DNA of 64,000 nt from Opitutaceae bacterium (GCA_030693515.1 JAUYAK010000005.1:3739-67738); one strand, 5' to 3'. Numbered from the stretch's first letter, positions 31,335-47,975 are shown. The notes: a model not told the origin generated them from the sequence alone. Numbers and translations: made by a program.

Positions 31335-32387
31335 CTAGGCGGTCTTCACCGGCACCGTGGCGCCGGCCACGAGCCGCTTGATCACGTCGTCGACCTTGGT
31401 GCCTTCGGCCTCGGCGCGGTAGTTGAGGAGGATGCGATGCCGTAGCACCGGGACGGCGAGCGCCTGGATGTCCTCGATCGTCACGTGGGCGCGGCCGCGC
31501 AGGAGCGCGCGGGCCTTGGCCCCGAGGATGATGAACTGCCCGGCGCGCGTGCCCGCGCCCCAGCTCACCCACTCGTTGACGAAGTCCGGCACCCCGGGCT
31601 GATGCGGGCGGGATGACGCCACGAGCTGCACCGCATAGCGCACCATCTCCTCGGCGACGGGCACCTTGCGCACGAGATCATGGAAGGACTGCACATCCTC
31701 GCCGGTGAACAGCGCCTCGATGGCTGCGGGCCGGCCCGCGGTCGTCTGCGCGACGACCTTCACCTCGTCGTCGATCGGCAGGTAGTCGATCACGACGTTG
31801 AACATAAAGCGATCGAGCTGCGCCTCCGGGAGCGGATAGGTGCCCTCCATCTCGATTGGATTCTGCGTGGCGAGGACGAAGAAGGGCTCCTCGAGCGGAT
31901 GGCGCACGCCCGACGCCGTCACCTGGTGCTCCTGCATCGCCTCAAGCAAGGCCGCCTGCGTCTTCGGCGGCGTGCGGTTGATTTCGTCGGCGAGGAGCAT
32001 GTTGGCGAACACGGGGCCGCGAACAAAGGTGAGCTGGCGTCCGCCCTCCGGCGTGTCCTGGAGAATCTCCGTGCCGGTGATATCGGCCGGCATGAGGTCG
32101 GGCGTGAACTGGATGCGCTGGAACTTCAGGTGGAAGATCTGCGCGATGGATTTCACGAGCAGGGTCTTCGCGAGACCGGGCGCGCCCGTGATCAGGCAGT
32201 GGCCGCCCGCGAGCAGCGCGATCAGGATCTGTTCGATCACGTCCTTCTGGCCGATGATCACCTTGCCGAGCTCGGCCTCGATGCGGGCGCGGCCGGCGAT
32301 GAGACGCTCGGCGGCGGCGCGCTCGGCCTCGAAAGGACTCGCGGGTGGAATCGGGGGCGGGGTGGCGGTGGTGGGGGCGATGCTCAT
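31335..32387 (-). CDS. MoxR-family AAA+ ATPase
   Basis: Walker A GAPGLAKT, Walker B LLADEINR, and typical MoxR length (350 aa). Directly upstream of DUF58. Confidence 0.92.
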   Translation of the reverse strand: MSIAPTTATPPPIPPASPFEAERAAAERLIAGRARIEAELGKVIIGQKDVIEQILIALLAGGHCLITGAPGLAKTLLVKSIAQIFHLKFQRIQFTPDLMPADITGTEILQDTPEGGRQLTFVRGPVFANMLLADEINRTPPKTQAALLEAMQEHQVTASGVRHPLEEPFFVLATQNPIEMEGTYPLPEAQLDRFMFNVVIDYLPIDDEVKVVAQTTAGRPAAIEALFTGEDVQSFHDLVRKVPVAEEMVRYAVQLVASSRPHQPGVPDFVNEWVSWGAGTRAGQFIILGAKARALLRGRAHVTIEDIQALAVPVLRHRILLNYRAEAEGTKVDDVIKRLVAGATVPVKTA

Positions 32388-32397
32388 GAGAGAGGGA

Positions 32398-32429
32398 CTA
32401 AGGGATCAAAAGACGAAGGGACCAAAAGA
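32398..32429. repeat. tandem 16-mer x2 in the moxR 5' leader region
   Basis: ctaagggatcaaaaga (32398-32413) is followed by cgaagggaccaaaaga (32414-32429), 13/16 identical, immediately upstream of the moxR ATG (32387, - strand). Confidence 0.8.
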
Positions 32430-32460
32430 TGGGAGGACGCGGGACGGAGCCGAAGGTTTG

Positions 32461-32496
32461 TGGTCCTTTGGTCACTTGGTCCATGGTCCGTTGGTC
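32461..32496. repeat. five phased TGGTC (GACCA on the mRNA strand) repeats, 7-8 nt period
   Basis: TGGTC occurs at 32461, 32469, 32477, 32484 and 32492, just downstream of the DUF4159-B stop codon (32506-32508). Confidence 0.8.
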
Positions 32497-32505
32497 GCTT
32501 AGTCA

Positions 32506-33483
32506 TCAGTGCGTCATCAGATAAAAGATCAGGTTCACGCCGATCGGATAGGAGACGCGCTCGGAGAAGACGGCGAAGTAGTCGGGCTGTTCGCCCTCGC
32601 GCTCCCAGCCGTCGGTGATGTCGGTGTTGTGAAAGGCGATGGCCATGATGCGGCCCTTGTCGTCGTTGAGCGTGCGCACGCTGACCTTTTGCGAGCCCTC
32701 GCCCCGGTCGATCTGGATGGGGGAATCCGGGTCGTTGGGATCGTGGTCGCGTTTCCAAAACTGCATGGTCGGAACCTGGATTCGCTGCATGGGCCCCTTC
32801 AAATCGAAGACGCAGTGGAAGAGCGGATGATCGAAGGTGAGCTCGGTCCATTCGCGCTCGGGGAGCACTTTCTTCATCTGCGCGGCGAAGCCAGCCCACT
32901 CGGTGCTATTCCAGAAATCGATCACGGCGAGGACCCCGCCGGCGAGGAGGTATTTGCGCAGCCCCGCGACTTCCGGCTCCTTGAGGAGCATGTAGCCGGG
33001 ATGCTCCATGAGGAGAAACGGGTAGTTGTGCAGGTCGGGATTGTTGAGCTTGAGCACCCGGCCCTCGGGGTCCGTGCGCATCGAGGTCATTTGCTGGAGG
33101 CGATAGGAGAGATTGAGATCGGCGTCGGGGAAATCGACCCACCAGCCGAGCCGCCGGCCGCGACCGTAGCCGGGCGCGAGGTTGGGGCCGACCTTGAAAA
33201 TCGCCCGGGCAAAGGTGAACACGTCCTTCTCGAAGCCGCGCGGATTTTCCCACATCGGCGTGCCGGTGCTGTGCGAGGCGACTTCGCGGGCCGTCTTGAC
33301 CTGATCCTCGTCGATCACGCCGCTGCCCTCGGTGCGCACGAGCGAGCCGCCGAGATCGTTTTCGTTGCCCCAGCCGCCCCAGCCGGGCGGAGGTCCGCCG
33401 CTGCCGCCCCGCGGCGGACGCACCGGCTGCGCCACGAGCGCGGCACAGAGCCCGGCGAAGAGGAGGTGAACGCGGCAGATCAT
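32506..33483 (-). CDS. DUF4159 domain protein (copy B)
   Basis: Signal peptide. Blocks WENPRGFEKDVFTFARA, DADLNLSYRLQQMTSMR and GGVLAVIDFW. Clear paralogue of the upstream gene. Confidence 0.8.
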   Translation of the reverse strand: MICRVHLLFAGLCAALVAQPVRPPRGGSGGPPPGWGGWGNENDLGGSLVRTEGSGVIDEDQVKTAREVASHSTGTPMWENPRGFEKDVFTFARAIFKVGPNLAPGYGRGRRLGWWVDFPDADLNLSYRLQQMTSMRTDPEGRVLKLNNPDLHNYPFLLMEHPGYMLLKEPEVAGLRKYLLAGGVLAVIDFWNSTEWAGFAAQMKKVLPEREWTELTFDHPLFHCVFDLKGPMQRIQVPTMQFWKRDHDPNDPDSPIQIDRGEGSQKVSVRTLNDDKGRIMAIAFHNTDITDGWEREGEQPDYFAVFSERVSYPIGVNLIFYLMTH

Positions 33484-33485
33484 GG

Positions 33486-34358
33486 TCAGTGGGTCATCGC
33501 GTAGAAGATGACGTTGATGCCGAGGGGATACGCGATCTTCTCGGAGAAGTTCTTGAAGTAGTATTCATACTCGCCCTCGCGCTCCCACCCGTCGCCGTTG
33601 TCGGTGTTGTGCGCGGCAAAGACCATCATGCGGCCCTTGTCGTCGTGAATGGCGCGATGATGGACGGTGCGCGTGTCGCCGTCGTGGTTTTCCCAGGTGA
33701 CCCCCGTATGCTGGCTCTCCTCGCCGGTGCGGACGTTGGGCACCTGGCCCTTGCTCTTGATTTCGAAGACGCAGTGGTAAACCGGATGATCGAGCGACAG
33801 TTCCCCGAACGAACGATCAGGAAAGACGCGCTTCATCTCGCGCTCCACATTTCTCCAAGCCGAGTCACCCCAGAAGTCGTCGAACATGAGGAAGCCGCCG
33901 TTGAGGAGGTATTTTCGCAGCGCCACGACCTCCGCGTCGCTGAACGAGAGGCTGCCGGGCTCGACAATGTAAATCCAAGGAAACGAACCGAGGTCGTCAT
34001 CGGTGAGGTTGATGAAACGCCCGTCCGGGTTGGTGCGGATCGAGGTCATCTGCTGCAAGCGATATGAGAGGTTGAGATCGCTGTCCGGCGTGTCCGTCGT
34101 CCAGCCCGGGCCGCGCATGCGGTAGTAGCCGCCGCCGCTGTTGTAGCGGGCCCGGGTGAAGGTGAAGACATCCTTCTCGAAGCCGCGGGTATTTTCCCAC
34201 GTGGGTGTGCCGGTGCTGTTAGTCGGTATTTCCCGCGGAGTGCGCACGGTGTCCGCGTTCACGCCGCCCTCGGTAAAGGAACGGCCGAAACGTCGCTGAG
34301 CCAGGAGGAGGCCGGAGCAAAGCACCGCAAACGCGACGAAAAGGGCGAGTCGCTTCAT
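33486..34358 (-). CDS. DUF4159 domain protein (copy A)
   Basis: Signal peptide. Blocks WENTRGFEKDVFTFTRA, DSDLNLSYRLQQMTSIR and GGFLMFDDFW. ATGA overlap with the TPR gene (34355-34358). Confidence 0.8.
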   Translation of the reverse strand: MKRLALFVAFAVLCSGLLLAQRRFGRSFTEGGVNADTVRTPREIPTNSTGTPTWENTRGFEKDVFTFTRARYNSGGGYYRMRGPGWTTDTPDSDLNLSYRLQQMTSIRTNPDGRFINLTDDDLGSFPWIYIVEPGSLSFSDAEVVALRKYLLNGGFLMFDDFWGDSAWRNVEREMKRVFPDRSFGELSLDHPVYHCVFEIKSKGQVPNVRTGEESQHTGVTWENHDGDTRTVHHRAIHDDKGRMMVFAAHNTDNGDGWEREGEYEYYFKNFSEKIAYPLGINVIFYAMTH

Positions 34359-36937
34359 GGCTGCTTGAGCGGGACCGGCACCGCCTCCAGCGGGGCCTGG
34401 GTGCGCGCGCGTTCGAGGTCGAGGAGGAGCCGGAGAGCGGCGCGGTAGCGCGGCGTGTCCTCGAGCGCGAGCAGGACATGGTGGCGGGCCTCGCCGTCAT
34501 CGCCGCGCTTGTGCAGCAGGCTCGCGAGTTGGAAATGGCCATCGGCGCGCTCCGGCACATCAAGCTGGAGGAGCGTGCGCCAGGCGACCACGGCCGCCGA
34601 GTCGTCGCCACTGCCAGCGGCGGCTTGGGCGAGATAGCGGTAGGGCGCGGGCACGAGCGGGTTGACGGCCAGGTAGCGCTCAGAGTTTCGCCGCACGGTC
34701 GCCCAGTCCTGCTCGGCCGCCGCCAGTTCCATAAGGCGGGCGTAGGCCTCGGGCGCCTCGTCGTCGGCGGCGGCCCACGCCTCGAGCACGCGGCGCTCGC
34801 CCACCGTGTCGCCCAGCGCCTTGAGCGCCGAGACGAGCGCGCGGAAAGCGGAATCGCCGCCCTTCTGCCGCGGATAAAGCTCGATCAGGCGCTCAAGCGG
34901 GCCTCGGGCGTCGGCCCAGTTCTGCTTCTCCATCGCACGCTGCGCCTCGTGGCGCAGGAACCAATAGTTGTCGGGGTGTTTCCGGCCCCACTCGGCCAGC
35001 TTGGCGTCGGCCCCGGGCGCGAGCAGTTCGGGGTCGATGCGCGTCCAATCGAGGCCCGGGGCGAGCTTCTCGGCGCGCTCCCGCGCGTAGGCCGCAAAGT
35101 CCTTCTCCAGCTCCGGCATCGGGATGGTGTGCTTGGCGAGGGCGACGTTGATTTCCATCCCGGTGCGCAGATCGGCGAGGATGCCGCGGATTTTTTCGAG
35201 GCCGAAGCGCCCCACGATGAACTCCACGACCAGCGCCGATTGCAGGTAGGCAAACTGCAGGTGGCGCGCCGTCTTGGGCGCGAGGAAGGCCGCGCTCAGG
35301 CGGCTCACCGGCACCAGATCGTCGCCGGCGAGCATCTCCCGGTATTTCGCGTCCAGCCGCATGCCCCATGATGGATCGGCCTGCCATTCCTCGTAAACGG
35401 AGATGCCTTCGCTCAGCCAGCGCGGCATTTTATTCTTCGTCATTTGCAGCGTCACGACATGGCAGAACTCGTGCCACAGGACGGACTCCCAATTCGTGGG
35501 CGAGCTGGCGGTCGCCGGGCTGTTGGCGGTGACGACTCGCCCGAAACACACGCCGAGGAACCCCGACACGTCGGGCAGCCCGAAGGTGCGCACGGCAAAG
35601 TCGCGCTGGTCCGCGAAAATCTCGATGTAGGTGGGCTTGGCGAGTTCGGCGCCGTATTTCGTGACGAGCACATCCTTGGCGCGGCGCAGCAGGGCGAGCA
35701 CGCGCGGACCATAGATTGCGACCTCGGGCGCGGCCATGCGGATGACGAAATCCTCGGTCTGCATCGCGGCATACTTCTTCATCGTGTCCTGGAGCGTCAC
35801 GAGGTTGAAGGCTTCGACATCATACTCGTCCCGATCGTGCACGGCCTGGGCGAGCGCCCAGCCCTCCTTATCCTCGCCGAGCCGGAGCAGATCGCTGGCG
35901 AGCTGGGCCATGGCCGGCAGGTAGGAAGGATCAGCCTCGCGGGCGCGGCGCTGGTAGGCGGCACCCTCGGCAAACCGGTATTTGGCGGAGAGCTTCTCGC
36001 CGATGAGATGATCGACCCGCGGATTGCGCGGCCAGGAGCTGAGCGCCCGATCGCGCGCGAAGGCCTCCCCTTCGGGATCGTTCTTCAGGTGCGCGATCAC
36101 CGCGCGATAGGCCCAGGCGTCGGGTTGCACGGGATTCACCGCGATGATCTCGTCGAGGACCTTGCCGGCCTCGGCGTAGGATTCGGAATCGATGTGATGG
36201 CTGACAAACTGGAGCAGCGTCGGCACGTGGCGCGCATTGACCTTGAGCGCCGCCTGGAGCGACGCGATCGCCACCGACCGATCACCACCGGCGTAGGCGC
36301 GACCGCGGCCACTGAGCAAATCCGGATCCTCGGGCAACTGCTTCAGGCCCTCCTCAAAAGCCTTGGCCGCGAGCGCATAGTCGTGCTTTTCCAGCGCGAG
36401 TTCGCCCCGCGCGCGATAGACCTCGCGGAGCTTGGGGTCGGCCTTCTGCACGGTCGCGAAGACTTTTTCGAGCACGTCCTTGGGGTCGTAGCCGGGCACG
36501 AGCAGCGCGGCGCGGCCGAACACCAGGAAATCCGCCGGCGCACGGTATTGCCACCCGCTGTCGCGCACCGCGGCGATGATGTCTTTGACGAACCGCGCCG
36601 CCTCCTCGGGCCGCCCATTGGCCAGGGCCACCTCACGCGCCTGCCAGCGCAGGCGGATGCTGCGGGTGTCGCGCAGGAGCGCGGCCTTCATCACCGTGTC
36701 CGCCTCGGGATAGCGGCCGACCTCAAGCAGGGCGCGCGCGAGCAGCATCGACCACTCGGTCTGGCCGGGGCCGTCGCCGATCTCACCTTGGGCAAGCTTG
36801 ATGACGGCGGCATGGTTGCCGGCGAGGAGGGCGCGCTGGGCCTCGGCGACCTCCGCGCCTTGCGCAGTGGCGACCGAAACCGAAAGCATCGCCAGCAGCG
36901 CGACCAGACGCGAAGGGAAGCGGCGGAGAAAATTCAT
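34355..36937 (-). CDS. TPR-repeat protein with internal peptidase-MA-like (HExxH) domain
   Basis: ATG at 36937 (MNFLRR..., signal peptide). The ORF-track start at 36949 is TTG. Zinc motif LWHEFCHVV followed by WLSEGISVYEE. TPR-like helical repeats lie on both sides. Confidence 0.8.
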   Translation of the reverse strand: MNFLRRFPSRLVALLAMLSVSVATAQGAEVAEAQRALLAGNHAAVIKLAQGEIGDGPGQTEWSMLLARALLEVGRYPEADTVMKAALLRDTRSIRLRWQAREVALANGRPEEAARFVKDIIAAVRDSGWQYRAPADFLVFGRAALLVPGYDPKDVLEKVFATVQKADPKLREVYRARGELALEKHDYALAAKAFEEGLKQLPEDPDLLSGRGRAYAGGDRSVAIASLQAALKVNARHVPTLLQFVSHHIDSESYAEAGKVLDEIIAVNPVQPDAWAYRAVIAHLKNDPEGEAFARDRALSSWPRNPRVDHLIGEKLSAKYRFAEGAAYQRRAREADPSYLPAMAQLASDLLRLGEDKEGWALAQAVHDRDEYDVEAFNLVTLQDTMKKYAAMQTEDFVIRMAAPEVAIYGPRVLALLRRAKDVLVTKYGAELAKPTYIEIFADQRDFAVRTFGLPDVSGFLGVCFGRVVTANSPATASSPTNWESVLWHEFCHVVTLQMTKNKMPRWLSEGISVYEEWQADPSWGMRLDAKYREMLAGDDLVPVSRLSAAFLAPKTARHLQFAYLQSALVVEFIVGRFGLEKIRGILADLRTGMEINVALAKHTIPMPELEKDFAAYARERAEKLAPGLDWTRIDPELLAPGADAKLAEWGRKHPDNYWFLRHEAQRAMEKQNWADARGPLERLIELYPRQKGGDSAFRALVSALKALGDTVGERRVLEAWAAADDEAPEAYARLMELAAAEQDWATVRRNSERYLAVNPLVPAPYRYLAQAAAGSGDDSAAVVAWRTLLQLDVPERADGHFQLASLLHKRGDDGEARHHVLLALEDTPRYRAALRLLLDLERARTQAPLEAVPVPLKQP

Positions 36938-37088
36938 TCGGGGAGGCAAAGCCGGCGGGGAAGACGCAGACGGCGTGAAAGAGTGATGCGAGGCACTTTG
37001 CTTTTCTCAAGCCTGACAGTGAAAGAGTTATTGCCAGACGATCTCACGCCGCCAAGTGGTCGCGGCGTTCGCGTCGCATCGCATTCGC

Positions 37089-37099
37089 GCTGGCTGCCC
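37089..37099. repeat. 11-bp direct repeat of the tRNA-Gln 3' end (candidate distal att remnant)
   Basis: CTGGCTGCCCG at 37089-37099 is identical to 41508-41518, which covers the last 10 nt of tRNA-Gln (including CCA) plus 1 nt. Same orientation. The two copies bracket the lower-GC islet. Confidence 0.4.
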
Positions 37100-37270
37100 G
37101 GCGGGGATAAAATCGAGAACTTTTGAGGCGAATCAAACGCTTGGGGACGTCACAGGACTTAGCAGAGGGTTGATGAAGCCGCCACGGCCGTTACGGACCT
37201 CGAACGGTCTCCGGAGCTAGCGAAAATCTCAGTCCACCCTGTGGCGGAATCGATGGAAACGAGATGCTCG

Positions 37271-37304
37271 CTTATTTCCCTATTTAGATGTTGATGGAAA
37301 TAAG
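37271..37304. promoter_or_regulatory. inverted repeat just upstream of fic (possible operator)
   Basis: CTTATTTCC (37271-37279) and GGAAATAAG (37296-37304) are separated by 16 nt of AT-rich spacer, about 20 nt upstream of the fic ATG. Confidence 0.3.
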
Positions 37305-37324
37305 TCGCCTGCTTGTTTCCACCC

Positions 37325-38515
37325 ATGAAAACAAGCCCCGCGCCCGCGCCGGCGGGACGCTGGATCAAAACCTTGGCGGGCTACCGAGCCTTCCGGCCCT
37401 CTCCGCTACCACCGGCCATTGCATGGACGCCGCAATTGGTCCGCGTCCTTTCGCAGGCGGATCGCTTGCTGGGACGTCTCGCGGGTGAAGGACGACGACT
37501 CCCTAATCCTCATTTGCTCATACGACCGTTCGTCTGTCGCGAAGCCGTTTACTCCAGCCGGATCGAGGGCACGCAAGCTACATTGGGCGAATTGCTGGCC
37601 GCGGAGGCCGGAGCGATTCCCGAACGCAGCCCGGAAGAATTGCGCGAAGTGGGCAATTACGTCGCGGCTTTGGAGCACGGCATGAAACGACTGAAGACGC
37701 TGCCGCTTTCGCTCCGCCTGGTTCGCGAGCTGCACCAGAAACTAATGACTGGAGTCCGGGGTGACCATGCGACGCCCGGAGAATTTCGCCGGACCCAGAA
37801 TTGGATCGGCCGTCCAGGTTGCACGCTTGCGGATGCGTCCTACGTGCCGCCCCCGCCTGACGATCTCCTGGAGCACCTCGGCCACTGGGAGGATTTCTTG
37901 CACGATGAAACGATTCCTCCGCTCGTGCATGCCGCCTTGATGCACTACCAGTTCGAAGCCATTCACCCGTTCATTGATGGCAACGGTCGCGTCGGACGAT
38001 TGCTCATCACCCTTTCCCTGTGTGCGCGCGACGTGCTGCCCGATCCGCTCCTGTATCTGTCGGCCTTTTTTGAAGCGACGAGAAAGGACTATTATGAAGG
38101 TCTGCGCGGGATCACGGAGCGGGGCGATTGGACAGGTTGGATCGAATACTTCCTCAACGGCGTGGCTCGTCAGTCGGAAGATGCCCTGAGTCGCGCGGAA
38201 CGGATCAACCAGCAGCTGGCCACTTGGCGAGAAGACTTCGCGGGGGGCGGCTCGAAGGTTCCGCTGCAACTCATCGACCTCATCGGGGCCAATCCCTTCC
38301 TCACCCCGCGTGAGACCGAGCGCCGGTTGGGCGTGGCCTACAACACCGTGATGCGTGCCATCATCGCATTGGAAGCCGGTGGTGTTTTAGCCAAGGTGGG
38401 CGAAGGCCAGCGCGACCGCGTTTTTTGCGCCCGTGCGATTCTCGACATTCTGGATGAGCCGGCCCGCTTGGTCCCGGAACCTCCCTCGACGCCTCATCGG
38501 AAAAGCCGCGGATAA
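37325..38515 (+). CDS. Fic-family protein (Fic_N + Fic core + C-terminal wHTH), predicted autoinhibited AMPylase
   Basis: Canonical Fic motif HPFIDGNGRVGR. N-terminal inhibitory-helix motif SSRIEG, i.e. (S/T)xxxE(G/N). ATG at 37325 (the ORF-track start at 37313 is TTG). Its stop TAA shares one nt with the next ATG (TAATG at 38513-38517). Confidence 0.9.
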   Translation: MKTSPAPAPAGRWIKTLAGYRAFRPSPLPPAIAWTPQLVRVLSQADRLLGRLAGEGRRLPNPHLLIRPFVCREAVYSSRIEGTQATLGELLAAEAGAIPERSPEELREVGNYVAALEHGMKRLKTLPLSLRLVRELHQKLMTGVRGDHATPGEFRRTQNWIGRPGCTLADASYVPPPPDDLLEHLGHWEDFLHDETIPPLVHAALMHYQFEAIHPFIDGNGRVGRLLITLSLCARDVLPDPLLYLSAFFEATRKDYYEGLRGITERGDWTGWIEYFLNGVARQSEDALSRAERINQQLATWREDFAGGGSKVPLQLIDLIGANPFLTPRETERRLGVAYNTVMRAIIALEAGGVLAKVGEGQRDRVFCARAILDILDEPARLVPEPPSTPHRKSRG

Positions 38516-40989
38516 TGGACCCATCGCAGCGGCAACAACGACTGAACGATCTCCGCCAAAAACTGGCGGCGCTCACGACCGAGGTCGTGAAAATTGAGGA
38601 CGAACTCGCGAACTTGGAAGCCGACAGACAACTCCACCTCGGCGCGACGCCTGCTTCTGCGATTCAAATCCCTCGCACGCCGGCAGAAAAGGTCGCCCTT
38701 TTTCTGGATCTGTTTGGCACCCGGCGTTCGGTCTATCCTAAACGATGGGAGAATAACAAAGCGGGAAAGAGCGGCTATTCGCCGGCGTGTGACAACGACA
38801 GTTTCGCGAATCGGCAAAGTGGTATCTGCCGGAAGCCGAAGGTGAAATGCTCGGACTGTCCACATCAACGGTTTCCTCCGCTCGACGAGCGAGCCGTAGA
38901 ATCCCACCTGCGAGGTGAGCAGACACTCGGCGTGTATGCCATCGGCACTGACGATACCTGCCGGTTTCTCGCGGCCGACTTTGATGGGGAAGGTTGGCGC
39001 GATGACGTGCTGGCCTACCGCGAGGCGGCCGAGCGGGTCGGAATCGCGGTCGCAATCGAGCGATCCCGGTCGGGCAACGGCGCGCATGCTTGGATCTTTT
39101 TCGCCGAGCCCGTGCCTGCCGCCATGGCGCGGAAGCTGGGAACGATTCTGGTGGCGAAAGCCTCAGCTTTGCGGCCGACCTTGGGGCTGGGCGCGTATGA
39201 TCGACTGTTTCCCAATCAAGATGCCTTGCCGGTCGGCGGCTTCGGAAATCTGATCGCGCTACCTCTGGCAAAGGCTCCGCGGCAGAATGGCAACACGCTT
39301 TTCGTGGACCCTCGAATGGTGGCTTTCGAGGACCAATGGTCGTATCTAGCAGGACTCCCCCGACTGAGTCGTGAAAGCTTGGACCGAACGCTCGCCAGAG
39401 TTGCGCCCGTCAGACCGTTGGCGTCACCGGTTCAAGCCGCAGAAGCATCCGAGCACCAGCAGGACTTCGCTCTGCAAAACGACGCGATGGTGCTGGAGCT
39501 GTCGCATCCGCAAATTCGCAGTGGAATGATCTCGGGCGAAGTGACGGTGCGGCTCGATGCGCATATTCATGTGCCCCGATCACTGCCAATACCGGTGCTG
39601 GCAGCGTTACGGAGGCTCGCGACGTTTCCCAATCCGGTCTTTCACGAGAAACTGCGACTGCGGTTCGCTACGTTTGATACGCCGCGATTTCTCTTCGCTG
39701 GCGAGTGGCACGCCGACCGGCTCGTGCTACCGCGCGGGGTGTTGGACCAGAGCCTTTCACTGTTGGAGACGGCTGGTGCCACGGTCGTCGTGCAGGATGC
39801 GCGAGAGGCCGGAACTCGCGTGCCGTGGAAATTCCAGGGTGAGTTGCGGGAAGGTCAGCAGAAGGCGGTGCGCAAAATGCTCGCGGAAGACAACGGTGTG
39901 TTGTGCGCTCCGCCGGGTGCGGGAAAGACGGTCATGGGCTGCGCGTTGATCGCACGAGCCCGCACCTCGGCGCTCGTGCTGGTGCATCGCGCGGTGCTGG
40001 TGGAGCAGTGGCGGGAGACGGCCATGCAATTTCTCGGATTGAAACGAAAGGAGATCGGTCTCTGGCGCGGGCCTACCCCGCGGCTCACCGAACGATTCGA
40101 CATTGCCATGCTGCCGTCGCTGATTCGTGTGGAAAATATCGCGGCAGCACTGGCCGGCTACGGAGTGGTCATCGTCGACGAATGCCATCATGTGCCCGCC
40201 GCGTCTTTCGAGATGGTGGTGAAGGCCTGCCCCGGCCGGCGGGTTTACGGACTCACGGCGACGCCGAAACGTAAGGATCGGCTGTAGAAATTGCTCTTCG
40301 CCCAATGCGGACCGATCCGGCACACGATGGTCGATGCTCCGACTGATGAAGTGCGGACGGTCAAAGTTCGCCACACCACCGTGACTCTGCCACCCGATGC
40401 TGGGCCGCGACCACCGATCCACGTGGTGTGGGAGGCGTTGGTGCAGGATGAAAGCCGGATGAACGTGATCGTCGCCGATCTGTTGACGTGCGCGGCGTCG
40501 GGGCGTTCGCCGCTCGTTCTGGCGGACCGCAAGGTCTACTTGGAACGGCTGCAAGCGGCGTTCATCGCGCAGGCCACCGGCGTCACGTGTCATCGACTGG
40601 ACGGGCAGCTGGGAAAGAAGTCCCGGAACGAAGTGCTGCGGCAGATCGGCGAGCACTACAATGAGCAGAAACCGTTCGTGCTGTTCGCAACGGCGTCGCT
40701 GATCGGCGAGGGGTTCGACCTTCCGCGTTTGGATACTTTGGTGTTAGCGATGCCACTTTCGTTTAAGGGGCGGCTCGTGCAATACGCCGGCCGGCTTCAT
40801 CGGCGGCATGAAGCCAAAGGCGCTGCGATGATCTTTGACTATCTCGACCACAACCACGCCATCACGAGTGCGATGTTTCGACGACGACTCGCCGGCTACA
40901 GTGAACTTGGGTATGTGGTCGAGATGCCGCAGAGCGAAGCTGCACCATGGTTCGGAGACAACCCAGCTGAGTCCGGGCGCACGAAATAG
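38515..40989 (+). pseudogene. archaeo-eukaryotic primase (AEP)-like domain fused to SF2 (DExH) helicase, interrupted by a single in-frame TAG at 40285-40287
   Basis: N-terminal coiled coil and a Cys cluster (C..C..CxxC). AEP motifs are DFD (FLAADFDGEGW), GNGAHAW and a downstream acidic motif. Helicase motifs are I APPGAGKT, II IVDECHH and III TATP. After the stop, reading continues in the same frame (RL*KLLFAQCGPIRH) into RecA2 motifs (ATASLIGEGFDLPRLD, QYAGRLHR). The second ORF (40291-40989) has only a TTG 'start'. Confidence 0.8.
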
Positions 40990-41005
40990 CCTCATCAAAA
41001 CTGCC

Positions 41006-41383
41006 ATGCCCATACCGAAGCGAAACGACGAACGGGAAGAACGCATCACCATGGAGATTGTCGTCGATTGCTACAATGAGAGCGAAGCGTGGTCGGGTTG
41101 GTGGTGCTATCTCGACAGCAAGCTCTCGTGTCCATTTGTGGCGGAATGTATCCGCGAGCGACGGGGGTCGCCGTTGAAAATCGGCGAGCGTGTGACCGTC
41201 ACCGCCATGCTCGATGACCATGAGGCGGCGGATTCGCTGGGCGAGATGCAGGTGGAGATCGAATGGCAGGGGCGGACCCTCGGCGTGCCCTTGACACAGC
41301 TCAGAGGCGTCGAAGTAAACGAGGGGACGGCGGAAGCCATCGCGGACTGGCACTATTGGGTGGCGCAAGGACGGCAGTTCTGA
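41006..41383 (+). CDS. small conserved protein (family often auto-annotated 'calcium-binding protein'), third gene of the islet
   Basis: ATG at 41006, 16 nt after the helicase stop. From recollection, MEIVVDCYNESEAWSGWWCYLDSKLSCPFVAEC...WQGRTLGVPLTQL...AIADWHYWV matches a widespread roughly 120-aa family. Confidence 0.65.
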   Translation: MPIPKRNDEREERITMEIVVDCYNESEAWSGWWCYLDSKLSCPFVAECIRERRGSPLKIGERVTVTAMLDDHEAADSLGEMQVEIEWQGRTLGVPLTQLRGVEVNEGTAEAIADWHYWVAQGRQF

Positions 41384-41508
41384 TTCGGCCGAGTCAAATG
41401 CGCGCCCGGGGAACTCGAAAATTTGACCATCCTTGGGGGCATTCGCAACCCACGGTCATCCGCTCGTTCCCGATTTGCTGCACCGCAGTTCGCACCCACG
41501 CCAGTCAC

Positions 41509-41582
41509 TGGCTGCCCGACATGGATTCGAACCATGACTAGGCGAGTCAAAGTCGCCTGTGCTACCATTACACCATCAGGCA
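41509..41582 (-). tRNA. tRNA-Gln (anticodon UUG)
   Basis: Hand-folded 74-nt cloverleaf. Acceptor TGCCTGA/TCGGGCA (U1-A72), D stem GTGT/GCAC, anticodon stem GGCGA/TCGCC with loop CTTTGAC, T arm CATGG-TTCGAAT-CCATG, discriminator G and encoded CCA. Confidence 0.9.
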
Positions 41583-41649
41583 AAAAGCGCAGTCGGACAA
41601 CGTGCTTCCGCCCTGCGCTCGGTCAAGGACGGAAAACACCGCCCCCCAC

Positions 41650-43029
41650 TCAACCTTCAGCGATGCAGTAGAGGTGCTCGTGCCCGCGCAGGAAGAGTTC
41701 CCGGTCCACGGCCACCGGTGAGGCGTCGAAATTGTCGTTGAGCTTGTTGGTCGCGACGATCTCGAACTTCGCCGCGTCCTTCAGCACCGCGGTCTGCCCG
41801 AAGCGGCCGACGACGTAGAGGTGCCCGTTGGCCGCCACCGGCGAAGCGTAGATGCCGCGCATGCCTTCGATCGGCTGGTCCTGGAAATGGAATTCGCCGG
41901 TCAGCGCGTTCACGCAGGAAAGGTAGGCGTCGTTGCTCTTGCTGAAATAAATCCGATCGCCCGAGAGCACGGGGGACGGCACGTAGGGGGTGCTCTTGCG
42001 CACGTGCCACGCGATTTGATCGGTGCCCGTGATGTCACCGCGCGCGGTCAGCTTGATCGCCTGAAGGGACGAGCCCTGGAAGCCGCTCGTCACGTAGACG
42101 AAGCCATGCCCGGTCACGGGCGTGGGAATTACGTTCACGGTCTGGCCAGCTGCTTCCCAGACGAGCTCGCCGGTCGCGGTGTCGTAGCTGCGCGTAAGAT
42201 TGGTCGCGGCGATGACGGCCTGGGTCCGGCCGCCGGTCTCGACGATGAGCGGCGTGGTCCAGGTGGTGCGCTCATCGCGACTCTTGCGCCAGACCTCGGC
42301 TCCGGTGCGCTTGTCGAGGGCGACGACGAAGGAGCCGCCTTCCTGATCCCACGGCACGATGAGGTGGTTGCCGGCGAGTGCGGGCGAGGCCCCTTCGCCA
42401 AAGCCGTTGCGCGTGCGCATGTCGCCGAGGTCTTTTTCCCAAATCAGTTTTCCGTCGAGATCGTAGCAGAAGAGGCCGCGCGAACCGAACGAGGCATAGA
42501 GCCGCTCGCCGTCGGTGACCGGCGAACCGGAGGCAAACGAGTTGGTCGCATGGCGCCCCTCGTGCGGCACCTCGCGGCGCGCGGTCTTCTGCCACACCAC
42601 GCTGCCGGTCTTCCGGTCGAGCGCGAGGACGACAAACTCGTGAACCTTGGTCGGGCGCGTGCCGCCGCCGAAACCGCCTTTGCCCTTCCCGGCTTTGCCG
42701 CGCCCATCGCCACCACCGGGCGGGCCGCCCTGGGGAGCCGCCTCGGCCTCAGCCGGAGCCCGCTCCTCCGTGGTCTCGATCGCGGCGAGGAGAAAGATGC
42801 GATCGCGCCACACGATGGGGGTGGAAAAACCGTAGCCAGGCACCTTGGCCTTCCAGCGCACGTTCTTCTCTTCGCTCCAAACGAGCGGCGGCTGGGCCCC
42901 GGGTGCGATGCCGGCTCCACTCACCCCGCGCCACTCGGGCCAGGATGACGCGCCGGTCGCTGCGGAACCGCGGCCGGCGAAAAAGAGCAGACTGCAAGCA
43001 AGGGTGATGAAGGCAAAGCGGTGGGTCAT
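41650..43029 (-). CDS. PQQ-like beta-propeller repeat protein (BamB-like fold), secreted
   Basis: ATG at 43029 with a signal peptide. Repeated WRG/W..K beta-propeller blades (e.g. VVWQK, LIWEKDLG, EVWRK, LVWEA). Confidence 0.75.
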   Translation of the reverse strand: MTHRFAFITLACSLLFFAGRGSAATGASSWPEWRGVSGAGIAPGAQPPLVWSEEKNVRWKAKVPGYGFSTPIVWRDRIFLLAAIETTEERAPAEAEAAPQGGPPGGGDGRGKAGKGKGGFGGGTRPTKVHEFVVLALDRKTGSVVWQKTARREVPHEGRHATNSFASGSPVTDGERLYASFGSRGLFCYDLDGKLIWEKDLGDMRTRNGFGEGASPALAGNHLIVPWDQEGGSFVVALDKRTGAEVWRKSRDERTTWTTPLIVETGGRTQAVIAATNLTRSYDTATGELVWEAAGQTVNVIPTPVTGHGFVYVTSGFQGSSLQAIKLTARGDITGTDQIAWHVRKSTPYVPSPVLSGDRIYFSKSNDAYLSCVNALTGEFHFQDQPIEGMRGIYASPVAANGHLYVVGRFGQTAVLKDAAKFEIVATNKLNDNFDASPVAVDRELFLRGHEHLYCIAEG

Positions 43030-43165
43030 GGGAGGAACGGCGTGGGTTGCCGGGCAGGACGCCCCTGCGTCCAAGAAGTTGCCCAAACCACGGCAACGTT
43101 GTTTCCAGAGAAAATGCGAATCGCCGCTTGAGTCCGTGCGTCTGTCCCCGGCACGCTCCCCCCGC

Positions 43166-44692
43166 ATGAGTTCCGCCCCCTCCCCTGCCTCGCCGACCAT
43201 GTCGCGCACTTCCTGGCTCATCTGCATCATCGCCGCGATCGGCTTTGCCTTCGACATCTATGAGCTGCTGATGCTGCCGCTCATCATCAAGCCCGCGCTC
43301 GCGGCCTTGAGTGCCCCGCTGGTGGAGGCGCTCGTGACCGGCGGCATGGAGCGGGCGAAAGCCGCGGCGCTGTGGTCGCCCGGCGGCGAGGAGTATGTGC
43401 GCTGGGCCCGGATGCTCTTCTTCGTGCCGGCCATTGCCGGTGGTATCTTCGGCCTGCTCGGCGGCTACATGACAGACCTGTTCGGCCGGCGCCGGGTGCT
43501 GACCTACTCCATTTTGCTTTACGCCTTTGCGGCCTGCGCGGCGGGCTTTGCCACCACGCTGCCCCAGCTGCTGTTTTTCCGCTGTCTCGTGTTCATCGGT
43601 GTCTGCGTTGAGTTCGTCGCGGCTGTCGCGTGGCTCGCCGAGATTTTCACCGAGCCGAAGCAGCGCGAAAAAGTCCTGGGCTACACCCAGGCGTTCTCGT
43701 CCTTCGGCGGCCTGATGGTCGCGGGCGCCAACATCCTCGCCGCCAAATGGGCGTTCGATCTGCCGGCCATTCACAACGGCCACGAAGCGTGGCGCTACAC
43801 CCTCATCTCGGGCGTGCTCCCCGCGCTGCCGCTGATTCTCATCCGGCCCTTCCTCCCCGAGTCTCCCGCGTGGCAAAAGAAGCGCGAGGCCGGCACGCTG
43901 CGGCGTCCGAGCATCGCGGCGCTCTTCTCGCCCGAGCTGCGCAAGACCACAATCATCACCACGATTCTCTTCGCTGGCAGCTACGGCATCGCCTTCGGCG
44001 CGATCCAGCAGCTCCCCCAGATCATCGGCGCCCAGCGCGTCGGCACCCCGTCCGAGTCCGGCCACGTCGCAGTGCGGGCCATTGCCAAGGAAAAGGGCGC
44101 CGAAGCCATGGCCGCCGCCAAGGCGGCCCAGAAGCCCGAGGCCGTCGCCCAGCGCGAGATGCGCCAGGCCGCCGCCAACGCCAGCGATCAGACCGTCGCA
44201 GGCGTCACGATGTGGCAGGAAGTCGGCGGGCTCGTCGGCCGCTTTCTGCTCGCCGTCCTCGCGGTGGTGATCCTGAGCCGGCGCACGTTGTTCCGCGTCT
44301 TCCAGATTCCGTCGCTGATATTCGTGCCCTTGCTCTTCTGGTGGATCAGCGGGCAGCTCGACGACGCCAGCAGCCTCGGGCTAATCAAGGCGGGCATCTT
44401 CGTCGCCGGTGTGCTGACCGTCGCGCAATTCAGTTTCTGGGGAAATTACATCCCGCTCGTCTTCCCCGTCCACCTCCGCGGCACGGGCGAGAGCTTCGCC
44501 GCCAACATCGGCGGCCGCGTGCTCGGCACCGCCGCCGCGTGGATTACCCTCACGTTCTCCGCCTCCGACAAACCCGATCCGGCGCGCGTCGCGCTCGTCG
44601 GTGCCTGCGTCGCCGGGGCCTACGCACTCGTGGGGGCGATTCTCACGCAGTTCCTCCCCGAGCCCAAGCCCGAAGACATGAAGGAGGAATAG
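43166..44692 (+). CDS. MFS transporter
   Basis: Multiple hydrophobic helices, the MFS loop motif DLFGRRRV, and about 500 aa. Start at 43166 (alternative ATG at 43199). Confidence 0.75.
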   Translation: MSSAPSPASPTMSRTSWLICIIAAIGFAFDIYELLMLPLIIKPALAALSAPLVEALVTGGMERAKAAALWSPGGEEYVRWARMLFFVPAIAGGIFGLLGGYMTDLFGRRRVLTYSILLYAFAACAAGFATTLPQLLFFRCLVFIGVCVEFVAAVAWLAEIFTEPKQREKVLGYTQAFSSFGGLMVAGANILAAKWAFDLPAIHNGHEAWRYTLISGVLPALPLILIRPFLPESPAWQKKREAGTLRRPSIAALFSPELRKTTIITTILFAGSYGIAFGAIQQLPQIIGAQRVGTPSESGHVAVRAIAKEKGAEAMAAAKAAQKPEAVAQREMRQAAANASDQTVAGVTMWQEVGGLVGRFLLAVLAVVILSRRTLFRVFQIPSLIFVPLLFWWISGQLDDASSLGLIKAGIFVAGVLTVAQFSFWGNYIPLVFPVHLRGTGESFAANIGGRVLGTAAAWITLTFSASDKPDPARVALVGACVAGAYALVGAILTQFLPEPKPEDMKEE

Positions 44693-44705
44693 GCCCCGCG
44701 CGCGC

Positions 44706-47700
44706 CTACCCCGCCGCCAGCGCGACACTCGGCCGCAGTTCCCCTGTCGCGCGCTGGAACACCACCCAGCCGCACGCGAGGTTGAGCAACGCGATGCCCA
44801 GCAGCATCGCGCCCACCGCCGCCAGCGTGCCCGCCGCCGGGAGGGCCGCGAGACTCGGCGCAATCGCGACGACCGACGACACCGCGCCAATCGCGAGGCC
44901 CCAGACGACGAGCGTGGCGAACTCGTGAAATACCATCCGCCCCAGCACGGCGCGCGGCAGGCCGATGGCGGACATCACGGCAAACTCCCCGCGCCGCTCG
45001 CGCAGATTGCGTGCGACGACCACCGCCAGCCCGAGGCTGCCCAGCACCACGCCCAGCGTGCCGAGGGCCGTGAAGATGGCGATGTAGGTGTTCTCGATCT
45101 GGTGGAAGGCGGCGAGCACGTCGCGCGTGAGCTCGACCTTGCCCCCCGCATCCGCGGCTGAGGCTGTCAGCCGGTCCCGCAGCGCCGTGAGATCGCCGCC
45201 GGGATTCTTCGCATCGGCCAGGAAGAGCGCGTAGCCGCCACTCGACGGAAATTTTTTCAGGAACAGCGCCTCATCCACGATCAGATGGCCCTGAAAAATC
45301 GAGTCGGGCAGCGTGCCAACGATGCGCACGGCGAAGGCCCCGCCCGTTTCGTCCGTGTAGGCGAGCGTGTCGCCGACCTTGCGCTTCAACGCCCAGAGCA
45401 GGGTGTTTTCATCGACGAGCGCGGGGATCGCACCGTCGGCGTCCGGGGCCCGCAGGTTGGCCCAGCCCGCTTCCTTGGTCCGGAACGCGCCGCGCTCGGC
45501 CAGCGCCGCGGTCTCCAGCGCCAGCAGCCGCGGCTGCATCGTCGTGTTGAGATTGAAGCAATTCACGTTGTCGCCCGGCCCAACGCGAACCGGGATCACC
45601 GTCCCGAGATCGACGGCATGCTTGCCAAACAATTCGAAACCCGACGCCCGGCCGTCGCGCGCATGATTCTGCGGCACCGTCGTCTCGATCCAGAATGCGA
45701 AACCGCCCGTGCCGCTCGCGCGCACGAGCCAGTCGGCGCCGACATGTTTCCGAAACGACGCCACCGAAAGCACCATGAACACTGCCGTCGCAATCAGGCC
45801 AACGACGGTGAGGCTGCGCGCGCGGCGCGCGGCGAGGTTGCGTCGCGCGAGCCTCCGCGCATCGAGCACCCCATCGGCCTGGGGTTCACGGGCCAGCCAC
45901 GCACGGCAGCCTGCGAGACCCGCCACCAACCACGAAAAACCCGCCAGATAGAACGCGATCTGCGCCGGCAGCCCGCCTCGCGACGCGATGAGCGCCGCGA
46001 CGCCCGTGACGGCGGCGAGCGCAGCGAGGATGATGGCGTTGCGCCGCGCCTGGGCCGGCGGCGCGGTTTCCTCGGCACTCGCGGCAAGGCGAATTGAGAG
46101 CGCGCGCCGGGTCTGGCGGCGAATCGCGAGCCACACCGCTCCGAGCGAAATGACCAAGAAGGCCCCGAGACCGGCCCCCACGCTCGCCGGCTGCATCGCA
46201 AATGTGAACACCGCCCCACCCCCCTGCCCCGCCCAGATCCGTTCGAGAAAGCGCAGGATGCCCTGGGTGTAGAGCGCCGCGAGCGGCACGCCCACTGCGC
46301 CCGCCACGATTAGGATCACCAGCGCCTCGCCGAGGCGCCAGCGGCCGATCTGCCGCGCCGGCACGCCGACGGCGCCGAGCAGCGCATCCTCCCGGTTGCG
46401 CAGCAGCAGCGAGAGCTGGAAGAGCATCGCGACCAGCCCCAGCGCCGCGAGAATCAGGAAGAAACTCATGCCGAGGAACAGCCCGCCGAAATCGACCGCC
46501 GACTGCGCCAAGTCCGCCGCGCCCGCGCGCACGTTGCGCACGAGCATTTGATTCAGTTCCGGGCGCAGCGCGGCCAAAGCCTGGCGCTCCAGCTCACCCG
46601 CTTGCCCCCGTGGGGCTGCGACGCGCAAGGCCGTCAGCTCGCCCCAGCGCGTCGCCCACATCTCGCGCCCGGCGGCGATGGGAAACCAAGCCTTGGGTGT
46701 GCCGCGATGATCGTCCCAGTAGCGTTCATCCTGATCGCGGATACGTTCGAGCTTCAGCGGCAATCCCGGATCCCAGTCGCTCTGGTTCTTCACATCGCTG
46801 ATGCCGGGAAACTCCGGCATCCACGCCCGATCCGCCGCCACGCCATCCAGCGGCACCACCGCGCGCACCCGGAACGCGGTGCTGTGTTCCGCGAGCACGT
46901 CGCCTGCGCCAACTTGGAAATAGGTCGCGGTCAGCTCGGCGCCGGGCCCCACCTGCAGATCGTCCGCCAGCCAGCGGTTAATCACGACTTCGCGCGGACC
47001 GAGGTCGGCCGGCAAAAACGGCGCAACTGCCGCCGTGGTCGCCGTGGCGATGGAATACGGCGTGGCCCGCCCGCCGGACCGCAGTTCGTTGACGAGGTAG
47101 GAAGCGACCGGCTGCGCCTGCGGCATCTCGCCGGTGATCGCCCGCACGAGGGCCGGATCGAGGAAGATGCGATCGGAGGTGAAATCAAAAACCTGCGCGG
47201 CCTCGCGCCACGGCAGCGCGAGTCCGTAGTCGGCGAGCCGGACCGTCGCCGCGAGCGCGGCGGACAATTCGGCATCGGTCCGCGTGCCGGAGATGAGCAG
47301 CAGATTGGCGCGCTGCGGTCGGTTTAGCGCGGTCTGCAAGAGCGCCATCGGCAAAAAAACCGATGGCGGCGGCACCTGGGTCGCCTCCAGATTGAAGCGC
47401 CCAAAGGCCGCATCGCCCACGATCACGGCCACCGTGCCGCGCACGGCCTCGAGCTTGGCCTCCGCTCCGGCGATGGGGGCGTTGCCCGCGAGCACGCCGG
47501 GTTTCTGCAAGCGCACGACGAGAGTGTCGCCGACCTTCAGCGCGAGACGACGGGCCAGCGTCTCGTTGACCGCCACTTCGTTTTTCTCGGCGTCGAGCGG
47601 GATCGCCGCAGGCTCGGGGGCCAGCTGCCAGAAGGCGGGCGTCACGCCCACGAGCTGCACTTGCGTGGCAAACGCCCGCGTCGCGGGCTGCGTCGCCGTG

Positions 47701-47975
47701 CCCCGGGCCAGCAGCACGGGCGCGGCGCGCACCTTAGCCGCCGTCGCCAACTCGGCCGCCAGCGCTTCGCGGAAAAATCGATCACCCGCGGCCACGACGT
47801 GGGTCGCCTGACCGATGCGCTGCGCCGCGATCCGTCGCAGTGAGGCCGCGACCGAGTCGCCGGCGAAGAGCGCGCCGAGCAGGACCGTCGCGCCCAGCAC
47901 CGCGCCGGCGAAGACGCCGAGGTAGGCGAAACGATGATGCGCGACGCTGCGCAGGATGTAGCGAAGAGTGGTCAT
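44706..47975 (-). CDS. ABC transporter permease, FtsX/MacB-type (multi-domain, 1089 aa)
   Basis: N-terminus LRYILRSVAHHRFAY and repeated FtsX-like TM bundles. Immediately downstream of the LolD/MacB-type ATPase. Confidence 0.8.
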   Translation of the reverse strand: MTTLRYILRSVAHHRFAYLGVFAGAVLGATVLLGALFAGDSVAASLRRIAAQRIGQATHVVAAGDRFFREALAAELATAAKVRAAPVLLARGTATQPATRAFATQVQLVGVTPAFWQLAPEPAAIPLDAEKNEVAVNETLARRLALKVGDTLVVRLQKPGVLAGNAPIAGAEAKLEAVRGTVAVIVGDAAFGRFNLEATQVPPPSVFLPMALLQTALNRPQRANLLLISGTRTDAELSAALAATVRLADYGLALPWREAAQVFDFTSDRIFLDPALVRAITGEMPQAQPVASYLVNELRSGGRATPYSIATATTAAVAPFLPADLGPREVVINRWLADDLQVGPGAELTATYFQVGAGDVLAEHSTAFRVRAVVPLDGVAADRAWMPEFPGISDVKNQSDWDPGLPLKLERIRDQDERYWDDHRGTPKAWFPIAAGREMWATRWGELTALRVAAPRGQAGELERQALAALRPELNQMLVRNVRAGAADLAQSAVDFGGLFLGMSFFLILAALGLVAMLFQLSLLLRNREDALLGAVGVPARQIGRWRLGEALVILIVAGAVGVPLAALYTQGILRFLERIWAGQGGGAVFTFAMQPASVGAGLGAFLVISLGAVWLAIRRQTRRALSIRLAASAEETAPPAQARRNAIILAALAAVTGVAALIASRGGLPAQIAFYLAGFSWLVAGLAGCRAWLAREPQADGVLDARRLARRNLAARRARSLTVVGLIATAVFMVLSVASFRKHVGADWLVRASGTGGFAFWIETTVPQNHARDGRASGFELFGKHAVDLGTVIPVRVGPGDNVNCFNLNTTMQPRLLALETAALAERGAFRTKEAGWANLRAPDADGAIPALVDENTLLWALKRKVGDTLAYTDETGGAFAVRIVGTLPDSIFQGHLIVDEALFLKKFPSSGGYALFLADAKNPGGDLTALRDRLTASAADAGGKVELTRDVLAAFHQIENTYIAIFTALGTLGVVLGSLGLAVVVARNLRERRGEFAVMSAIGLPRAVLGRMVFHEFATLVVWGLAIGAVSSVVAIAPSLAALPAAGTLAAVGAMLLGIALLNLACGWVVFQRATGELRPSVALAAG

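Follow-up and report, generated by a model that had tools for sequence, protein, structure and literature searches.

The window analysed here is a stretch of 64,000 nucleotides from an Opitutaceae bacterium (GCA_030693515.1, JAUYAK010000005.1:3739-67738), and positions are counted from its first letter. We examined a frame of 824 codons at 38515-40989 (+ strand), assigned below to the family of the IS-excision enhancer IEE, together with its flanking genes. The gene ahead of it, at 37325-38515 (+), encodes an intact SoFic-like Fic protein of 396 aa with the Pfam domains Fic_N and Fic. It starts at the ATG at 37325 (the ORF caller had taken a TTG at 37313), and its stop overlaps the start of the IEE homologue (TAATG). 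The Fic protein matched the PADLOC SoFic model over its full length (E 1.1e-116) and scored 156.8 bits with the NCBIfam SoFic equivalog, for which the cut-off is 550. A CcbP-like gene of 125 aa (PF11535, E 5.4e-33) follows at 41006-41383 (+), 16 nt after the stop of the IEE frame. The same 125-aa gene lies 3' of the intact orthologue in two relatives, L016 (8492-8869) and L017 (4088-4465), the orthologue being 86% identical. A CcbP-like match of 48 to 63% identity was also seen in an alphaproteobacterial MAG (L037, 123-468), where it is upstream of the IEE homologue.

The three genes adjoin a tRNA-Gln(UUG) gene predicted by ARAGORN at 41509-41582 (- strand), whose 3' end points toward them. 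An 11-nt direct repeat, CTGGCTGCCCG (repeat family D7), occurs at 37090-37100 (+) and again at 41508-41518, where it overlaps the 3' end of the tRNA-Gln gene. On extension, 16 of 19 nt match (37090-37108 versus 41508-41526), and the window holds two matches to the repeat versus 0.10 expected. The repeat pair thus brackets a 4.4-kb Fic-IEE-CcbP islet in the manner of att sites; no integrase was found within the islet. On the other side of the upstream repeat is a TPR-peptidase MA gene (34355-36949, - strand) at the end of a MoxR/Bat operon, which is kept in 23 of the 25 congeners searched. No tRNA-Gln, Fic, IEE, or PQQ gene lies within 1.5 kb of the TPR-peptidase gene in 24 congeners. The junction is therefore not syntenic and no empty site is definable, and synteny upstream of the TPR-peptidase MA gene is broken specifically in this genome.

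By sequence homology, the gene at 38515-40989 is a homologue of the IS-excision enhancer IEE of E. coli O157, made up of an AEP primase-polymerase and an XPB/RadD-like SF2 ATPase. IEE of E. coli O157:H7 consists of an N-terminal AEP domain fused to an SF2 helicase-like domain (PMC9943667), and the same paper credits its description to Kusumoto et al. 2011. When the O157 Sakai chromosome was searched in six frames, the read-through protein matched a single place (39% identity, E 2.8e-160, residues 42-804), which is annotated as ECs_1305, "IS-excision enhancer IEE", within SpLE1. Pairwise BLASTP against IEE (786 aa) gave 37% identity (E 4e-169), collinear from residues 29-802 versus 8-777, so that the two proteins share one architecture and are homologous over nearly the full length. 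The BLASTP alignment also shows that the AEP catalytic Asp pair (D155/D157, corresponding to IEE D142/D144), the Walker A Lys (K471, IEE K451), and the Arg finger (R760, IEE R735) are kept. Both genes have a mobile or integrative setting, SpLE1 for IEE and the tRNA-Gln islet for the gene in the window. The host in this case is a bacterium of Opitutaceae type in which no more than 4 rve-type transposase matches were counted. The assayed activities that mark the IEE family, namely, transposase-dependent enhancement of IS excision and Mn-dependent polymerase and MMEJ activity (PMC9943667), would be putative for its gene.

The AEP domain (Z1568-like/AEP-TOTE) occupies residues 58-291 (38686-39387, +). 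It matched the whole PF22548 model with 287 bits against a cut-off of 27 (E 1.2e-85). The SF2 RecA1 lobe (ResIII/DEAD) occupies residues 443-590 (39841-40284, +), with the Pfam match to PF04851 covering residues 443-586 (E 2.8e-21). The closest solved structures are XPB/Rad25 and RadD for the helicase half and CRISPR-associated PrimPols for the AEP half. With the CRISPR-associated primase-polymerases (CAPP; PDB 7nqf and 7nqd), the protein shares a homologous AEP core (E 3e-12 to 7nqf; PADLOC "PrimPol, CAS-associated", E 2.9e-76), but no cas genes were found among the window neighbours scanned with Pfam. XPB/Rad25 structures match residues 441-603, and the RecA1 lobe matches archaeal XPB (E 5e-14). 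The protein differs from XPB/Rad25 and RadD in its AEP fusion, and by analogy with IEE it would serve as an ATPase and DNA clamp rather than as an unwinding helicase.

The AEP-TOTE domain PF22548 is also common to the TOTE conflict systems (TPR, OB, TBP, Effector), for which PMC12458937 cites Aravind et al. 2022. However, the locus in the window has no TPR-cold-shock (TPR-OB) or TBP partner. Among the large ORFs that flank the gene within 31335-47975, Pfam scanning detected MoxR, DUF4159, TPR-peptidase MA, Fic, CcbP, PQQ propeller, MFS, and FtsX, and neither TBP nor CSD. The sole TPR protein near the locus is the peptidase-MA fusion of the oppositely oriented MoxR/Bat operon. Assignment to a TOTE conflict system was therefore rejected, since the domain is shared and the system is not.

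Members of the IEE family carry both domains in one unbroken polypeptide. The gene in the window departs from this, as its frame is interrupted by a premature amber codon, TAG, at codon 591 (40285-40287, +; genome coordinate C87:44023-44025), and it is thus a broken member of the family. Translation confirmed the sequence-only reading, which had described two ORFs in the same frame divided by a single TAG: the codon is the sole internal stop of the 824-codon frame. The first ORF, at 38515-40287 (+), starts with ATG and comprises 590 codons and the premature TAG, covering the AEP domain, the linker, and the RecA1 lobe with motifs Q, I, II, and III. The rest of the frame, at 40288-40989 (+), comprises 233 codons and the natural TAG stop and covers the RecA2 lobe with motifs IV to VI and the Arg finger R760, which is thus 3' of the premature stop; the ORF called in it runs from a TTG over 40291-40989 (232 aa). 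The local sequence, codon by codon, is CGT AAG GAT CGG CTG TAG AAA TTG CTC. Motif III (TATP) is at 40255-40266 and ends 7 codons 5' of the TAG, and RKD at residues 586-588 presumably occupies the place of the XPB RED motif just after motif III. Motif VI (QYAGRLHR, 40780-40803) and a Pfam match to Helicase_C (PF00271, E 1.4e-9) are downstream, which places the stop between motif III and the RecA2 lobe, as had been proposed. Both halves match one protein family collinearly, with the downstream piece aligning to IEE residues 571-777, and the two ORFs are therefore not a chance pair. The gene is single copy, as tblastn against the whole genome matched only 38515-40989.

The downstream piece had been described as having neither an ATG nor a ribosome-binding site. 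The first of these statements did not hold, as the frame contains an ATG at 40327, and NCBI nr has a record of the 220-aa product that begins with it. As for the second, AAGGA is present at 40273-40277, 13 nt 5' of the TTG, yet it is also present in relatives and reads as ordinary Lys-Asp coding sequence, not as an evolved ribosome-binding site.

We then considered whether TAG might be decoded in this organism. Across the whole assembly (6.65 Mb, 130 contigs), ARAGORN predicted 53 tRNAs and one tmRNA, and a CUA anticodon is absent from the tRNA set. TAG terminates 403 of 1,975 (20%) confident long ORFs with a strong coding signature. Pyrrolysine insertion or a change of the genetic code was therefore rejected, as there is no CUA tRNA and TAG is not avoided as a terminator; TAG is a stop in this genome. 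ARAGORN also called two tRNA-like genes with four-base anticodons (ttac and gcaa), at c[21527,21602] and [50942,51036], which are probably odd-loop tRNAs or false positives.

Relatives of the gene were used to establish the ancestral state of the interrupted site. In species-representative genomes, relatives are encoded in 597 of 600 matching stretches, in Verrucomicrobiota, Spirochaetota, Myxococcota, Proteobacteria, Bacillota, Planctomycetota, and other phyla. All 80 loci kept from these have a single match spanning residues 580-602 with no stop at the site. Three stops occur elsewhere within the matches of the 80 loci: the two at position 804 are where genes naturally end, and the third, at position 448, is a nonsense codon. 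The latter is an independent in-frame stop in the Q-motif region of a Verrucomicrobiia MAG (L076, 4974-7250). Metagenomic homologues were examined as the best 120 of 7,955 matches; 104 of these 120 are at least 800 aa long, most of them exactly 824 aa. The ends of the 16 shorter ones are scattered, with none at 590, and about 6 have scrambled, frameshift-like C termini. Across all collections, identity to the closest relative is about 92%, and the members of the 90% cluster are fragments with 88 to 94% identity.

Among the close homologues (62 to 92% identity), all 114 that cover column 591 have Glu there, and the codon is GAG in L013, L014, L016, and L017. The lesion therefore corresponds to one G-to-T transversion. 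The orthologue alignment that the sequence-only reading had called for thus supports its suggestion of a nonsense mutation by one substitution and identifies GAG as the ancestral one among the five source codons that it had listed. In the wider family (80 loci), column 591 is occupied by His (36), Gln (31), Glu (12), and Asp (1); E. coli IEE has His at this position.

These data bear on two explanations in which the interrupted gene would still function. In the first, the helicase is deliberately split: the RecA2 fragment, re-initiated at TTG 40291 or ATG 40327, would reassemble with the 590-aa product into a two-piece enzyme. The TTG is 4 nt after the stop with AAGGA 13 nt upstream, the 220-aa product from ATG 40327 is annotated, and the downstream codons still look selected (see below). 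However, no homologue split at 590/591 was found among the 80 genome loci or the best 120 metagenomic homologues, and the conserved coding origin of the AAGGA motif speaks against an evolved ribosome-binding site. In an AF2 model, moreover, motif III forms a strand (576-581) that is followed by a helix at 588-598 and an inter-lobe loop at 599-614, and the break would be inside the helix rather than in the loop. This placement is of low confidence, as the model is mediocre (mean pLDDT 66.6, below 50 across 583-610) and was used for secondary-structure placement only. The selected appearance of the downstream codons is equally expected if the stop is recent. With the site crossed in 80 of 80 loci, 104 of the 120 homologues of full length, and none ending at 590, the idea of a deliberately split helicase is refuted for the family, and a functional two-piece enzyme in this genome is extremely unlikely.

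In the second, the stop is leaky and acts as a throttle: near-cognate readthrough of UAG would give a little full-length enzyme, and hence a low dose of a costly, error-prone polymerase. In E. coli, Gln is commonly inserted at UAG by near-cognate decoding, and it is natural at this column in the 31 distant members noted above, so that readthrough would probably yield an active enzyme. The TAG is followed by an A, as are just 11% of the TAG terminators of the genome. On the other hand, basal stop readthrough is normally well below 1%, the genome has no suppressor tRNA and uses TAG as a normal stop, and any accidental nonsense mutation would look alike. No relative has a stop at the site, so nothing shows selection for it. 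The proposal of a readthrough throttle thus found no support, and we regard it as very improbable; even when functional readthrough and a two-piece enzyme are taken together, their joint probability stays small.

The age of the lesion was assessed from the condition of the remaining codons. Conservation reaches at least 97% at 306 columns (230 upstream and 75 downstream of the stop). The copy in the window has no private change at any of them, and the median number for intact homologues is 2 upstream and 0 downstream. Downstream of the stop, dN/dS between the window and its relatives is 0.14 to 0.22, and the intact relatives among themselves give 0.16 to 0.26. The gene in the window shows no sign of relaxed selection, indicating that the TAG is either very recent or not real. 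The statement of the sequence-only reading that any decay must be recent is borne out by these two measures. In a separate observation, dS versus L013, L014, and L016 was 0.61 to 0.71 in the C-terminal third (40288-40986), about twice that of the first 590 codons (0.24 to 0.35). This contrast between the parts of the gene suggests a mosaic or recombinant history within it.

With no other damage in the gene, a sequencing or assembly error and a recent mutation fit equally well. If the stop were such an error, the organism would have GAG at codon 591 and an intact 824-aa gene, and an otherwise flawless frame is what this predicts. The change is also a G-to-T transversion, a type that arises from oxidative damage in library preparation. 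However, consensus substitution errors are rarer than real nonsense pseudogenes in a genome of 6.6 Mb. The exact 590-aa and 220-aa products are present in both NCBI and Logan, which suggests that the same stop was obtained from a second assembly of the reads. The gene is also visibly decaying in several congeners, as described below, so that a real lesion is unsurprising. We consider an error unlikely and the TAG, with good confidence, a genuine and recent loss-of-function mutation of an IEE-family gene.

For a genuine mutation, the following sequence of events is proposed. A G-to-T transversion would have turned codon 591 from GAG (Glu) into TAG very recently in evolutionary terms, and translation would now end within the helix that follows helicase motif III. 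The expected product of 590 aa comprises the whole AEP domain and the greater part of the RecA1 lobe, without RecA2, motifs IV to VI, and the Arg finger. Published work on IEE allows its properties to be predicted, although the analogy is with a protein of 37% identity. When IEE is reduced to its AEP domain by a stop at codon 289, polymerisation on short templates is normal, and two 3' ends cannot be synapsed (PMC9943667). The K451A variant of IEE has no ATPase activity and retains synapsis, and the authors proposed that the groove separating the two RecA-like folds holds duplex DNA (PMC9943667). On the behaviour of these mutants, the 590-aa product probably keeps polymerase activity and loses the two-lobed DNA clamp, and neither ATP hydrolysis nor end joining would be expected of it. 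The truncation would thus remove the grip of the two lobes on DNA, on which end synapsis and microhomology-mediated end joining by IEE depend. With both the grip and the ATPase lost, the allele would be a loss-of-function allele for IEE-type activity.

We additionally searched 24 congeners for the islet genes. One of these (G016) has a demonstrably intact IEE copy, with 83% identity and a Fic gene (91%) directly upstream, and at least four have deletion remnants. In G013, an intact Fic gene (89%) precedes an IEE gene whose match stops after residue 183, with unrelated sequence beyond. G019 has residues 1-133 joined to residues 758-813 about 100 nt from a tRNA-Gln(UUG) gene, G002 retains about 46 N-terminal IEE codons, and G003 retains a fragment over residues 137-195. 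In G018, the Fic gene is intact and the contig ends just inside IEE. The remaining congeners have no IEE copy. The congener Fic copies are 87 to 91% identical and intact and directly precede the IEE gene or what is left of it, and Fic is intact in all three congeners in which it is visible beside IEE (G016, G013, and G018). IEE is thus an accessory gene that has been lost recurrently in the genus, and a fresh nonsense mutation fits this pattern. The nonsense mutation in the window would be the first step of a path of decay along which the congeners have gone further by deletion, with the adjacent Fic gene staying intact independently of the IEE gene. That the inactivated system is toxic, a possibility raised in the sequence-only reading, is conjectural. 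The same reading did not recognise the gene as an IEE homologue. Fic is intact even beside a mostly lost IEE.

The lesion alone carries little weight, being an ordinary, textbook case of an early pseudogene. Within the genus, however, the copies form a decay series (intact, interrupted by a nonsense codon, truncated, and reduced to small remnants), and this series with Fic intact suggests that the IEE partner is dispensable or costly. A different account of the same series is that the 590-aa AEP-RecA1 product is a selected, de-clamped form, in which the error-prone polymerase is kept, perhaps with a trace of full-length enzyme through Gln readthrough, and the costly, deletion-prone end joining is shed. 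In that case, Fic and IEE would form a real conflict module of two genes, with the IEE component repeatedly attenuated or shed across the genus. We give this account only a slight chance, and simple loss of function remains the preferred reading.

Two results reach beyond the lesion and are worth keeping, namely, the link between AEP-TOTE/helicase proteins and IEE and the Fic-IEE pairing with recurrent IEE loss. The widespread environmental proteins described as "AEP-TOTE + SF2 helicase" are full-length homologues of the biochemically characterised IEE, and this link gives a large family a concrete, testable activity. In annotation, the 590-aa and 220-aa proteins now on record should be one disrupted IEE-family gene. 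A literature search found no paper on a Fic-IEE link. A Fic gene is located within 5 kb of an IEE-family gene in 9 of the 80 diverse loci, which is far commoner than chance; in most cases it directly precedes that gene in the same orientation. The loci listed for this adjacency are the window (37325-40989) and L002, L003, L011, L018, L019, L039, L052, L072, L073, L078, and L079. In five Opitutaceae genomes, the Fic gene directly upstream of the IEE gene is 85 to 91% identical.

The gene in the window has Fic and the CcbP-like gene as neighbours, whereas IEE in SpLE1 is accompanied by DUF3987 and YagK/YfjJ-like genes. At the Sakai locus (NC_002695.2, 1376029-1381313; L101), IEE is preceded by the DUF3987 protein and by a small protein whose YagK/YfjJ and Rep-like matches are weak and below threshold. 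Copies of IS30 and IS66 are located 3' of IEE, and none of the IEE neighbours is common to the Opitutaceae islet. Other neighbours of family members include Fic, Schlafen/AlbA_2-HATPase_c_4, AAA_14-DUF4143, RhuM, AbiEi/AbiEii, and an integrase, a variety that is typical of mobile or defence islands.
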